A DNA stretch of 64,000 bases from an uncultured Spirochaetota bacterium (GCA_963745235.1 CAVUXE010000052.1:256001-320000), one strand, 5' to 3'; positions 7,937-11,113 are shown, counted from the stretch's first letter. A program made the numbers and translations. The notes: generated by a model not told the origin, from the sequence alone.

Positions 7937-8797
7937 CTACACTGCCACGAGAACTGGCAGCTCGCTCCTGCGGATGAGGTGGGATGCCGTGGGGCCAAGG
8001 AGGTAGTCACGCATCTTGTGCCTGCCATGCGCGCCAATGAGGATCATGTCCACGCCTTCCCGTTTTGCGATCCGGGAAATCAGGTCAACGGGCTTTCCCG
8101 TTTCCGTGAGGAGCCGGTAGGGAATCCCATGGCCGTTCAGGTAGCCCAGCTCGGAGGCAACGGGGAAGCTCTCCTCCAGCTCCTCCCTGACGGTGAGCAC
8201 CACCATCTCCTCCCAGATGTTCCCCAGGGCGTTCACGCAGAATTGAAGCGCTTTCTCCGCTCCCGGGCTTCCATCGTAGGGAAAGAGCATCCGCTTGGGG
8301 CTGTGAAAGGGCATGGGGCAGACGAGCACGGGCCGCGGGGAGGAGCGCACCACGTCCTCCGTCGTCGACCCGACGATTGCCCTTTCGATGTGGGCATGCT
8401 CGCCTTTCTGCCCAACAACAAGGAGGTCCCCCGAGCGGGTCTCCTCAGCAAGCACCCCGGAGGGCAGCCCTTCGCGCAGGACGGTGGTGGCCTTGATCCC
8501 CACTGTCTCTGCCTCGCTTCGACACCGGTCGAGGCAGTTCTCCGCGAAGGACTTGATGTCCTTCCTCACCTGCTCGTAAAAGCCCTTCAGGCCCGGGTCA
8601 GGCGGGATGTACACGCGCTCGAACCCGTAATCGAAGTGACTGGCCGTGTAGATGATGGGAAGGTCGGTTTTGCGTGAATCAATGACAAAGACGATCTTGA
8701 CGGCCGCGCTCACGCGGCCCGCAAGGTCGACGGCGTACTGAAACGCCGCCAGGGAGTTGGGCGATCCGTCTATTCCTGTGACGATCTGCCCGATCAC
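7937..8797 (-). CDS. Tandem-domain universal stress protein
   Basis: IVTGIDGS, DLLVVG..G, VGSTTE.VVR.SP.PVLV; second domain PYDGS...GAHG...LLG. Confidence 0.9.
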   Translation of the reverse strand: MIGQIVTGIDGSPNSLAAFQYAVDLAGRVSAAVKIVFVIDSRKTDLPIIYTASHFDYGFERVYIPPDPGLKGFYEQVRKDIKSFAENCLDRCRSEAETVGIKATTVLREGLPSGVLAEETRSGDLLVVGQKGEHAHIERAIVGSTTEDVVRSSPRPVLVCPMPFHSPKRMLFPYDGSPGAEKALQFCVNALGNIWEEMVVLTVREELEESFPVASELGYLNGHGIPYRLLTETGKPVDLISRIAKREGVDMILIGAHGRHKMRDYLLGPTASHLIRRSELPVLVAV

Positions 8798-9012
8798 CCC
8801 TGCACTTTCCCCCCGCCCGCAACCGGGCTCTTCTCTGCGGTCTTTTGCGCCTGGGAGTCCTTGTCATGGAGCTTCGACAGCTTGTACTGCTTGAGCAGCA
8901 GCCGGATGGCGTCGTTTATGCCTTCGGTCCTGCTGACGTAGTAGCCTTCTTTGATCATTTCATCGAGCCCTTCGAGAAGCTCGGTTGAAGTCTCAACGAA
9001 TGTCTTTGACAC
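8794..9012 (-). CDS. Ribbon-helix-helix (CopG-like) regulator
   Basis: GTG start with GGAGG; LDEMIKEGYYVSRTEGINDAIRLLL pattern. Confidence 0.75.
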   Translation of the reverse strand: MSKTFVETSTELLEGLDEMIKEGYYVSRTEGINDAIRLLLKQYKLSKLHDKDSQAQKTAEKSPVAGGGKVQG

Positions 9013-9138: not shown

Positions 9139-9918
9139 TCACGGCAGAACCAACTGCGCCATTTTCTCGACCTGGCCCCTGCTGAGGGACTTCCACAGGG
9201 CGTGGAAATCAAGGAGCCACCCGGACTCGATGCCGGAGCGCAGGAACCTGTAGAGCTCCTGCGAGCTTTGGCGCGCATTCCTGCGGAAGTCCCGCAGTGA
9301 GTCCTCGTCCCCGAGGTCGGAAACTACTCGTATGCTGAGCGGTGGAATGCGCGCCCGGAGCGCGCCGACGAAGATGCCCGCGGTTTCCCAATTGCAGGCC
9401 GCGGCGCCGCTGACGGCATGGAGGGACTCCCTGACCTGCAGGGACTGGATGAAAAACTCGCCGCATGCCTGCACGCCGGATCTCACCTGGAGCCCGAGGC
9501 CATTCCCGAGCTGCGCCGCGGCCCGAACGAGCCGCTGCGATTCCCTGCGCGCAAGGAGCTGGAGCCCCGAGGGAAGGCGCATCTCGGGGATGATCCTTGC
9601 GGGAAGCCCGCTGCCGGAAATGTCATACTCGATGCAGGTGAGCCCGATCACGATGCTGTTCACGATCAGGTCTCCGTCGAGCGCCGCGCATGTCCCCGAG
9701 TCTATGACAAGGTCCGGCTGGACGTCCCTGATCCCTGCCACCGTGGCTGAGGCGGCCCTGGCCTTCGCCGGCCCGGACTGGAGAGCGATGATCTCGGTGT
9801 TGGCGATTGAACCGCGGCTCGAGCGGCACCCCAGGATGGGGGGGCCGTCACGCAGGGACAGGGCGGAGCGGCAACTGGTGAACTCGAGCGGGATTGGGCA
9901 TATCACAAGGATGCGCAC
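9139..9918 (-). CDS. Nucleoside phosphorylase / MTA-SAH nucleosidase-like protein (PNP_UDP_1)
   Basis: SGPAKA.AA, PDLVIDSGTCAAL, NWETAG, IRVVSD. Confidence 0.75.
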   Translation of the reverse strand: MRILVICPIPLEFTSCRSALSLRDGPPILGCRSSRGSIANTEIIALQSGPAKARAASATVAGIRDVQPDLVIDSGTCAALDGDLIVNSIVIGLTCIEYDISGSGLPARIIPEMRLPSGLQLLARRESQRLVRAAAQLGNGLGLQVRSGVQACGEFFIQSLQVRESLHAVSGAAACNWETAGIFVGALRARIPPLSIRVVSDLGDEDSLRDFRRNARQSSQELYRFLRSGIESGWLLDFHALWKSLSRGQVEKMAQLVLP

Positions 9919-9950
9919 ACGTTCTCCCGACCGGCATGATAGCTGAAGCG

Positions 9951-9985
9951 AAAAAAAATGTGGGGATAGGTAACACCTATCCCCA
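9951..9985 (-). terminator. Rho-independent terminator
   Basis: 11-bp perfect stem TGGGGATAGGT/ACCTATCCCCA followed by U8 on the minus strand. Confidence 0.85.
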
Positions 9986-10055
9986 TGGTGAGACAAGGGG
10001 GCAAGGAAAGGAGGTGAAACTTACCCCACGAATCTAGATTCCGTTCTGTCTCTAC
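9951..10055 (-). ncRNA. Candidate small RNA with anti-SD loop (UUUCACCUCCUUUC)
   Basis: Nested stems GAGACA/UGUCUC, GAAUC/GAUUC and GGGGUAAG/CUUGCCCC (G-U pair only on the minus strand), then the terminator; intergenic. Confidence 0.6.
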
Positions 10056-10162
10056 ATTAATAAACACCGGCACACGGCAATTGTTACACCACCGTGCGCG
10101 CCACGTCCAACGAACCCGGGCTTTTTGATTATCTTTTCATGGCGCGAGGGAGGCGCACGCTG

Positions 10163-11113
10163 ATGGAAATGAACACCAGCAAGGTGGCAATCATCGGGGC
10201 AGGCTCGGTCGGCTCCACGCTCGCGTTCAATCTTTGCCTCAAGGGTGCCGTCACCGACATCGCCCTGATCGATTCGAACCGGGAGAAGGCTGAGGCTGAA
10301 ATCCTGGACATCAAGCAGGGGTCTCCTCTCGGCAGGTCGTTGAAGATAGAGGCCGCGGACTATGGATCCTGCAGGGACAGCCGCATCGCAATCATCACGG
10401 CGGGGGCCAGGCAGAAGCCGGGAGAGACACGCGTTGACCTCATGGAGCGCAACATCGGCATCATGAAGTCGATTGTGAAATCCATCCTCGACTCCGGGTT
10501 CCAGGGCATCTTCCTCGTCATCACGAATCCCGTGGATGTCCTGACATGGGTGGCTTTCGCCGAAAGCGGCTTTCCCGCGGCGCGCGTCTTCGGTTCGGGC
10601 ACCATCCTGGACTCCGCGCGGCTGCGTGAGTACGTGGCCCGCCACTGCAAGGTGAACCCGCAGAACATCCACGGCTACGTCCTGGGCGAGCACGGGGACA
10701 CATCGTTCCCGGCGTGGTCGCTCCTCACCATCGGCGGGATCCACTTCAACGAGTTCTGCCCCGTGTGCGGCGTCTGCGAAGAGCTGGAGGTGTTCAAGCA
10801 GAACACGATGAACGAGGTTCGCGCTACGGCGTACCGGATCATCCAGGCGAAGGGCTCAACGTGCTACGCCATCGCGCAAGCCGCCTCCCTCCTTGTCGAA
10901 TCCATCGTCCGTGACGAGAGGCGGATTCTGCCCGTGTCCACTGTCCGAAAGGAGTTCAAGGGCATTCGGAACACGGCCTTCAGCTTTCCCGCAATCGTTG
11001 GACAGACCGGCGTGAGCCGTGTCCTGGATTTTCCGCTTCCACCCGACGAGGAGAAGTGCCTTGTCGACTCTGCGCGGTACGTGGCTGAAAACATTTCCCG
11101 GGCGGGCTATTGA
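10163..11113 (+). CDS. ldh: L-lactate dehydrogenase
   Basis: IIGAGSVG, TAGARQKPGETR, TNPVD, GSGTILDSAR, LGEHGD. Confidence 0.95.
   Translation: MEMNTSKVAIIGAGSVGSTLAFNLCLKGAVTDIALIDSNREKAEAEILDIKQGSPLGRSLKIEAADYGSCRDSRIAIITAGARQKPGETRVDLMERNIGIMKSIVKSILDSGFQGIFLVITNPVDVLTWVAFAESGFPAARVFGSGTILDSARLREYVARHCKVNPQNIHGYVLGEHGDTSFPAWSLLTIGGIHFNEFCPVCGVCEELEVFKQNTMNEVRATAYRIIQAKGSTCYAIAQAASLLVESIVRDERRILPVSTVRKEFKGIRNTAFSFPAIVGQTGVSRVLDFPLPPDEEKCLVDSARYVAENISRAGY

Follow-up and report, generated by a model that had tools for sequence, protein, structure and literature searches.

The window, i.e., the whole 64,000-nt stretch of DNA from an uncultured Spirochaetota bacterium that was analysed here (GCA_963745235.1 CAVUXE010000052.1:256001-320000), carries on its minus strand a compact arrangement of a promoter, a structured RNA and a terminator. 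Read from 10088 to 9951, the order is TGTAAC, a 16-nt spacer, TGTTTA, about 8 nt, an RNA with three helices and an intrinsic terminator. The transcript borders listed in Table 1 combine the predicted fold with matches of two covariance models (10055-9954 for model R1, 10057-9954 for model R2). Here, the 5' end is placed by analogy with the promoter-to-ATG distance of the sigma gene discussed below and the 3' end lies within the U-tract.

Downstream of the RNA and co-oriented with it follows a gene for an MTA/SAH-nucleosidase-like protein. Its GTG start codon (9918) is located 32 nt after the U-tract. The protein is distantly similar to MTA/SAH nucleosidases, which are its relatives in the PDB. 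A reading of this gene as a defence effector was discarded, for which there is just a weak PADLOC match of 18.4 bits. Further downstream on the minus strand we find a small RHH-type gene, a UspA gene and a protein-L-isoaspartate methyltransferase gene, all with sequences resembling a Shine-Dalgarno (SD) element. The small ORF between the nucleosidase and UspA genes (8794-9012, minus strand, about 72 aa, starting with VSKTFVETSTELLEGLDEMIKEGYY...) has a strong SD and looks by eye like a ribbon-helix-helix protein; the same ORF precedes UspA in loci L060 and L084.

Table 1. Features of the RNA locus and of related loci in the same genome. Positions without a contig name are counted from the first letter of the window.
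Feature	Position	Strand	Details
sRNA transcript	9951..10058	minus	~100-108 nt (~105 nt); covariance-model matches and fold
-35 element	10083..10088	minus	TGTAAC, ECF-type promoter; conserved before homologues
-10 element	10061..10066	minus	TGTTTA, 16 nt after -35; ~1.7-1.8 bits at TGTT
Helix P1	9990..10052	minus	closes three-way junction; GAGACA 10052-10047 with UGUCUC 9995-9990
Helix P2	10028..10044	minus	ACGGA 10044-10040 with UUCGU 10032-10028; MFE fold
Helix P3	9998..10027	minus	8 bp; GGGGUAAG 10027-10020 with CUUGCCCC 10005-9998
P3 loop	10019-10006	minus	14 nt, UUUCACCUCCUUUC; copy of 16S 3' tail
Intrinsic terminator	9951..9985	minus	11-bp stem 9985-9961, 3-nt GUU loop, U8 9958-9951; terminator scan
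MTA/SAH-nucleosidase-like gene (PNP_UDP_1)	9139..9918	minus	Pfam PF01048, E = 6e-20
Type B sRNA gene	L005:1450-1580 = G000:C18:52700-52831	minus	promoter TGTAAC-N16-GCGTTT; outside the window
ECF sigma gene	G000:C53:125585-126112		Pfam Sigma70_r2/r4_2; NCBIfam sigma70-ECF 87.3 bits vs cut-off 42.9
ECF sigma/anti-sigma operon with promoter	L113:1471-3090 = G000:C53:125555-127174		
PWM site, rank 1			26.9 bits; promoter of the window sRNA
PWM site, rank 2	C18:52831	minus	24.4 bits; type B sRNA
PWM site	C22		17.8 bits
PWM site, rank 4	C53:125555		14.9 bits; directly before ECF sigma gene
Last two of six PWM sites			duplicated site

The minus strand folds with an MFE of -39.9 kcal/mol (z = -4.58), and none of 200 shuffled sequences was equally stable; the fold of the plus strand is weaker (z = -3.35). 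The loop of P3 is unpaired in the minus-strand fold. All elements that an earlier note had described from the sequence of this locus are found in the minus-strand sequence, among them the outer stem, the 8-bp hairpin with its loop and the 11-bp terminator followed by U8, the latter confirmed by a terminator scan. The inverted repeat that the note placed within the outer stem (GAATCTAGATTC) is present as well, and P2 overlaps the GAAUC/GAUUC palindrome GAAUCUAGAUUC, but the fold as well as one compensatory change (in genome G023) prefer the shifted register ACGGA/UUCGU. The assignment to the minus strand holds, since it is fixed by the U-tract and by wobble swaps in the hairpin stem. That is, P3 is found within the family in two forms, G-C with U.G and G.U with C-G, and each of them pairs on the minus strand only.

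Conservation of the RNA and its loop

The Rfam scan that had been proposed for this locus finds no described family. At gathering scores, Rfam 15 gives 0 matches for the whole window, and for E values up to 10 just 4 weak and unrelated matches are reported within 9700-10300 (13.9-20.1 bits compared to gathering scores of 54.6-88). The sRNA is thus not matched by any Rfam 15 family, which includes the LhrC, RsaE, cuckoo/ar14 and csRNA models. Searches of the freely accessible full-text literature found no description of the sRNA or of the sigma factor's regulon, and to our knowledge post-transcriptional regulation in spirochaetes is poorly known. While the sRNA is new to Rfam 15, it most likely belongs to a known kind of regulator, i.e., the stress-sigma-dependent anti-Shine-Dalgarno sRNAs.

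A DNA search among 40 related genomes finds the element in 23 of the 24 other genomes of the family with 82-93% identity, its flanks being mostly unmatched. Since the element alone and not its flanks is conserved across the family, this is more than expected by chance. Model R1 identifies the RNA in 59 of 92 genomes of the order and in seven of its eight families, usually with one copy per genome (f1 23/24, f2 4/5, f3 2/2, f4 2/2, f5 7/8, f6 15/21, f8 5/5, and f7 0/24, where R1 covers only the form found in the window, in the following called type A). The loop hairpin is also present in seven other families of the order. We rejected a repeat or mobile element as explanation, given the single full copy in the genome and the one copy per genome in most relatives.

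Scanning the collection with a degenerate loop pattern resulted in 57 loci. Among these, 51 belong to MAGs whose titles read Spirochaetales, Spirochaetaceae, Spirochaetia or Spirochaetota. The remaining 6 loci (Streptococcus, Macromonas, Prevotella, two Bacteroidales and one other bacterium) show no promoter and were for this reason taken as chance matches.

To assess the structure, 52 homologues were aligned using R2, a four-helix model built from the family. In this alignment, which is fitted to the structure such that pairing is inflated, 96.8% of the cells hold standard pairs, compared to 36-59% after shifting the 3' partners by 1-3 columns. Over the 52 sequences, 25 of 28 pairs have changed on both sides and compensatory changes are present in all four helices. 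Both-side changes are seen for 6/6 pairs of P1 (one pair is A-U in 25 and G-C in 21 sequences), for 4/4 modelled pairs of P2, for 7/8 pairs of the P3 stem and for 8/10 pairs of the terminator, where 99.2% of the cells are paired. The unfitted alignment shows the change of P1 from GAGAC/GUCUC to GAGGC/GCCUC and changes within the terminator, too. The comparison supports a discrete RNA gene on the minus strand with promoter and terminator of its own, as proposed in the earlier note, and this gene is outside of Rfam. As judged from sequence comparison, the locus is a real and previously uncatalogued small RNA gene of uncultured spirochaetes.

The genome encodes two 16S rRNA genes, both ending in ...GGAUCACCUCCUUUCUAG. 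The sRNA loop and this 3' tail have 12 nt in common (UCACCUCCUUUC), i.e., the similarity to the 16S tail noticed before is an identity with the genome's own rRNA and holds for both copies. A fragment of the 16S rRNA was ruled out, since only these 12 nt are in common and the flanks differ. Among the 52 aligned sequences, the complete loop is identical in 42 and CCUCCUUU is kept in all 52, where for 48 of the 52 the search pattern itself accounts for part of this invariance. Within the family, whose loci are anchored independently by synteny, no aligned member deviates from this loop. Conservation of the loop, on which the initial interpretation hinged, is thus observed among relatives, and the loop is the sole near-invariant part of the RNA.

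Promoter motif and the ECF sigma operon

The motif GTAAC-N16-[G/T]GTT is present upstream of the RNA in 34 of 35 loci from relatives, the remaining one being truncated at the end of its contig. The same holds for 49 of the 51 spirochaete loci of the collection, the 2 misses having only 13 and 28 nt of upstream DNA. The consensus of 51 distinct promoters is TGTAACnAA-N13-TGTTT with a spacer that is fixed in length (16 nt) and unconserved in sequence. When the whole 5.85-Mb genome is scanned with the respective PWM, just 6 sites score above 12 bits (Table 1). The ECF-type promoter that had been suspected upstream of the RNA is supported by the comparison, with a 16-nt spacer between its two boxes, and its bipartite motif is also found before a conserved ECF sigma gene.

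This sigma gene is overlapped by an anti-sigma gene, which is followed by two further genes. The anti-sigma protein shows an HxxxCxxC motif and one membrane span, while its zf-HC2 match is below the cut-off. One clear orthologue of the sigma factor (46-93% identity, paralogues at most 33%) is present in 90 of the 92 genomes of the order. Considering 28 of 30 fetched loci (one cut by a contig end was left out and one omitted), GTAAC-N16-xGTT is located directly before the sigma orthologue in 26 and a 1-nt-shifted form is found in the other 2. The conservation of the motif is not a coding effect, because it is intergenic where the upstream cysS gene ends earlier. A motif at this position is apparently what is typically seen for ECF sigma factors that regulate their own gene, and a promoter in common with such a sigma gene is what characterises ECF-sigma-dependent sRNAs. 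The promoter of the sRNA is thus most likely recognised by the conserved ECF sigma factor. Given that the genome contains about 20 ECF-like sigma genes, it is solely the common motif that singles out this one.

In all 28 orthologue loci, the sigma ATG is located 3-5 nt after the GTT of the -10 element and no SD is present. Because of this short distance, the sigma mRNA is probably leaderless. For the anti-sigma cistron, on the other hand, an SD (GAAGGUGA/GAGGGUGA) is conserved at 5 nt upstream of the ATG. The leaderless state is of relevance for a further claim of the earlier note, namely that leaderless stress genes of the window would escape the sRNA. In this form the claim is not supported, since SD-like sequences precede the starts of the genes directly downstream, i.e., the nucleosidase, RHH and UspA genes. 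Nevertheless, the idea of an escape survives in another form, as it is the sigma factor's own mRNA that looks leaderless.

Type B, i.e., the paralogue behind the second-ranked site, is flanked on one side by the 3' end of a GH1 glycosidase gene, which is convergent to it, and on the other by an ankyrin-repeat gene, which is divergent. Its RNA is shorter than type A and consists of about 20 unpaired nt followed by a terminator hairpin with the loop UUUCACCUCCUUU; its locus has no Rfam match. Within the order, the pattern TGTAAC-N17-GTT-N10-90-CCTCCTT occurs in 74 of 92 genomes, compared to 13 matches in 11 genomes for the reversed control. By exact pattern, type B forms are found in families f1 and f6 as well as in 12 of 13 genomes of one f7 genus, and short forms like type B are present in 7 of the 25 genomes of the window's family. 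Among the genomes with the short form are the complete ones of f7 genus g18.

For an even sample of the class, the pattern was found in 100 of 201 genomes (control: 25 matches in 20 genomes) and a sigma orthologue (E up to 1e-20) in 168 of 201. Cross-tabulation by hand places the pattern in 96 of the 168 genomes with an orthologue vs. 4 of the 33 without, which is to be read as consistency and not as a statistical test, since related genomes are not independent. The four genomes with pattern and without orthologue are G210, G212, G233 and G275; for 3 of them, which are 79-92% complete, the match resembles a real sRNA. In many other orders of the class, the same promoter is followed by RNAs carrying ...UUUUUCAUCGACCUCCUU, i.e., the complement of an SD and a subsequent AUG. 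The best conserved extra promoters of the sigma factor appear to drive anti-SD RNAs.

Two class-level examples (G160:C1:3481532-3481635 and G092:C6:24611-24712) contain ...UUUUUCAUCGACCUCCUUUU..., which is complementary to SD + AUG + AAAAA. In such RNAs, there is often another CCUCC-like box after UUUUUCAUCGACCUCCUUUU.

Genomic neighbourhood

Many of the collected loci are found at the borders of contigs. That is, 19 of the 51 spirochaete loci are at most 400 nt away from a contig end, and in every case it is on the upstream side of the promoter that the contig breaks off. Upstream rRNA was recognised in 15 of 20 contig-end loci, 7 of them via Rfam and 8 via string match. In the former, co-oriented 3' parts of 23S and/or 5S rRNA are directly upstream (7/20 loci); a partial tRNA is reported by Rfam for 1 locus, L092. 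In the latter, the contig starts with the string that ends the genome's own 23S rRNA (5 loci) or its own 5S rRNA (3 loci). ARAGORN reports no tRNA upstream in 12 contig-end loci. Where a 5S gene is upstream, it is followed by a T-run and then by 7-64 nt up to the -35 box.

In five MAG contigs (L043, L044, L061, L073 and L085; first ~115 nt, sRNA-forward strand), the sRNA promoter is located about 70 nt after the 3' end of the 23S rRNA, and this gap contains neither a 5S gene nor an evident terminator. Here, the sRNA occupies the usual place of the 5S gene and may be reached by read-through of the rRNA operon. Given rRNA genes upstream and the nucleosidase gene downstream, the ancestral order was rRNA genes (23S/5S), sRNA, nucleosidase gene. 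In the window's family, the sRNA-nucleosidase module adjoins instead a divergent L-lactate dehydrogenase gene. As a separate observation, the contig start G000:C22:5-4833 harbours several partial and partly repeated 23S pieces (four fragments, model positions 1379-2912), which could reflect either a misassembly or a second rRNA locus that is broken.

On the downstream side, a co-oriented nucleosidase homologue (34-100% identity) is present in 36 of the 52 loci, in 32 of them about 90-230 nt after the loop. The 16 loci without a downstream nucleosidase, 1 of which has no downstream DNA, feature among others a co-oriented endonuclease IV gene (4), a UspA gene (3) or a convergent acyl-CoA synthetase gene (5). 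Because a convergent gene comes next in 5 loci, the sRNA can be a complete transcription unit. These loci, the covariation of the terminator and the unlinked paralogue together imply an independence from any single downstream gene, i.e., the comparison suggests a terminated transcript that is not tied to one neighbour, as characteristic for trans-acting sRNAs. A riboswitch or attenuator, which is always part of the 5' UTR of its regulated gene, would not be expected in the 16 loci without nucleosidase and in particular not before the 5 convergent genes.

Nevertheless, the two genes are close. In many members of the family, the U-tract and the SD of the nucleosidase gene are just about 15-30 nt apart. 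Since a promoter would not fit in between, expression of the nucleosidase is explained most simply by transcription that starts at the sRNA promoter and reads through, which is considered likely.

Proposed role and alternative readings

With somewhat better than even chances, we consider type A an ECF-driven, terminated sRNA of about 105 nt whose loop pairs with SD regions and thereby lowers SD-dependent translation under stress. Beyond the gene, its structure, the loop identity, the promoter sharing and the synteny, all of which come from sequence and comparison, we infer sigma dependence in vivo, mRNA pairing and read-through as follows. Stress would free the conserved ECF sigma factor from its membrane anti-sigma factor and the sigma factor would drive type A. 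The scaffold of P1, P2 and P3 would keep the 14-nt loop open, such that it could pair with the SD regions of mRNAs (GGAGG, up to GAAAGGAGGUGAAA) in competition with the 30S subunit. During stress, translation and probably also stability of SD-dependent mRNAs would fall, while the sigma mRNA, starting at or next to its ATG and without SD, would not be a target. Some transcription probably passes the terminator into the nucleosidase, RHH, UspA and protein-repair genes. The sRNA would form the repressing arm of the ECF regulon, as do MicA/RybB/MicL and SabS.

The seed is conserved and unpaired, and what it is complementary to are generic SDs. At least 10 contiguous nt of loop complementarity are found for 177 genomic sites, mostly inside genes or without a start codon, and this genome-wide scan for contiguous complementarity showed no outstanding or conserved target. 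To block SDs generically, the sRNA would have to be highly abundant.

A cis-acting leader, which was the alternative named in the earlier note, would likewise agree with the tight and old linkage to the nucleosidase gene. In its strict form, the sRNA would be nothing but the 5' leader (attenuator) of the nucleosidase operon, with a terminator that sets the amount of ECF-driven transcription reaching the genes and a released short RNA without function. This would account for the 36/52 co-oriented downstream nucleosidase genes and for the start of 32 of them about 90-230 nt after the loop, for the short gaps that leave no room for another promoter and for the 7 further loci in which endonuclease IV or UspA genes occupy the nucleosidase's place. 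It does not account for the 5 loci with a convergent gene after the terminator or for a paralogue with the same promoter and loop between unrelated genes. Furthermore, near-invariance is confined to the exposed loop and does not extend to the junction or to a segment for alternative pairing, and no antiterminator is found in the MFE and centroid folds (thermodynamic folding only) of the sRNA and of the read-through RNA, where the loop stays free. Pairing of the loop in cis with the nucleosidase SD was considered as well and dismissed, as it is absent from the read-through fold and the U-tract pairs there instead. We thus regard the strict leader as rather unlikely. What stands of this alternative is the old linkage and a likely read-through, i.e., a role for the nucleosidase that is added to the one of the sRNA and does not replace it.

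A different use of the loop would be that of a decoy for the 16S 3' end, which titrates a tail-recognising protein or part of a complex (a maturation nuclease, an Era-like factor, a ribosomal protein or a toxin) instead of pairing with mRNAs. We rate this as quite unlikely. It keeps some weight because the 12-nt identity reaches beyond the CCUCC core and because of the rRNA linkage, i.e., the ancestral position of the gene directly after 23S/5S rRNA, with rRNA upstream in 15 of the 20 contig-end loci. However, no candidate protein is linked to the sRNA gene, and the loop variants UUUUACCUCC, UUUGACCUCC and UUUUCCUCC retain the SD complement and lose the UCA of the tail. Moreover, the RNAs with the same promoter in other orders have anti-(SD+AUG) seeds with flanks unlike the 16S tail, which speaks for pairing with mRNAs rather than for mimicry of the 16S tail alone. 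Hardly probable at all is a function of the plus strand, be it as a strong SD (AAAGGAGGUGA) of a small ORF or as a bidirectional terminator with chance similarity. While GGAAAGGAGGTGAAAC is found on this strand, which also has a good fold, a start codon is absent within 13 nt after the SD, the G.U/U.G swaps would become A-C/C-A mismatches, and all homologues have promoter and U-tract oriented for the minus strand.

When relating the preferred reading, i.e., pairing with SD regions, to the sigma operon, positive feedback is allowed, because the anti-sigma cistron is SD-led and the sigma cistron has no SD. The sigma factor and the anti-SD sRNAs might then constitute a switch of translation mode with built-in positive feedback, which we deem unlikely. 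In such a switch, the leaderless sigma cistron would be immune to the sRNAs, while the sRNA loop could cover the SD of the overlapping anti-sigma cistron, such that induced sRNAs would raise the sigma:anti-sigma ratio. Leaderless (SD-independent) mRNAs would globally be favoured over SD-led ones, and the ancestral position behind rRNA genes, in some lineages directly after 23S, would couple the amount of the 16S-tail copy to rRNA synthesis.

If type A blocks SD regions, the clearest conserved direct outputs of a sigma factor present in 168 of 201 class genomes would be sRNAs that copy the mRNA-docking sequence of the ribosome. Such sRNAs would offer a compact means of reducing SD-dependent translation under stress with the leaderless sigma mRNA escaping, and a testable case for the debated question whether SD-dependent vs. 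leaderless initiation is a regulated choice in bacteria. Most carriers of the sRNA are uncultured. For genome annotation, the models R1 and R2 with 52 aligned members describe an RNA family that is so far unannotated, and the sRNA explains a recurrent feature at contig ends beside rRNA genes in spirochaete MAGs.

The following comparison to known systems draws on portions of the cited papers. ECF regulons often include sRNAs, e.g., three for RpoE and SabS for SigAb (PMC12153292). As for the spirochaete sRNA, the small ECF regulons of MicA, RybB and MicL (E. coli) and of SabS (Acinetobacter baumannii) include the sigma factor's own operon and sRNA genes, and these sRNAs are the repressing arm of an activator-only sigma factor (PMC12153292). 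In contrast to the generic anti-SD seed of the spirochaete RNA, their seeds are specific for envelope mRNAs and Hfq is used (PMC12153292).

The stress-sigma-driven CcsR1-4/'cuckoo' RNAs of Alphaproteobacteria (Rhodobacter sphaeroides) resemble the spirochaete RNA in their alternative stress sigma promoter (there RpoHI/RpoHII), in hairpin loops that show an anti-SD (CCUCCUCCC), in being tied to the UTR of a neighbour (3' UTR in R. sphaeroides, 5' UTR in S. meliloti) and in their Rho-independent terminator (PMC8034643). The spirochaete RNA differs in that it has no sequence or covariance-model match to CcsR, one loop that repeats 12 nt of the 16S tail in place of CCUCCUCCC, an ECF-type and not an RpoH-type promoter, no DUF1127 partner and an origin in a different phylum. 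LhrC1-5 of Listeria monocytogenes are similar as multicopy, envelope-stress-induced RNAs with CU-rich sites that block translation at the RBS, but are under LisRK two-component control and use three short UCCC-type sites compared to one long 16S-tail copy (PMC4132741). Unlike LhrC, the spirochaete RNA has no match in Rfam. Pairing with the RBS in competition with the 30S subunit is the mode of CcsR/cuckoo, LhrC and other sRNAs with CU-rich seeds (PMC8034643, PMC4132741).

With regard to the promoter, ECF16 (EcfF of Bradyrhizobium japonicum, BcrS of Brucella melitensis) shows a similar -35 element, (T/C)GTAAC(c), a spacer of 16-17 nt and an autoregulated sigma/anti-sigma operon (PMC3420878, PMC8315932). 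The transcription start mapped in B. japonicum overlaps the ecfF ATG, i.e., the mRNA is leaderless as proposed for the spirochaete sigma factor (PMC3420878, PMC8315932). The -10 elements differ, with CGAA for ECF16 vs. TGTT(T/A) in spirochaetes (PMC3420878, PMC8315932). That is, compared to the ECF16 regulon pattern (T/C)GTAAC-N16/17-CGAA, the spirochaete promoter matches at the -35 and not at the -10 element. For B. subtilis SigX, the -35 box is identical to the spirochaete one while again the -10 element differs (PMC3420878, PMC8315932, PMC12153292). Finally, the spirochaete sigma factor scores best, below cut-off, with NCBIfam ECF models other than ECF16, and its anti-sigma factor is distinguished from that of ECF16 by the HxxxCxxC motif and one membrane span.
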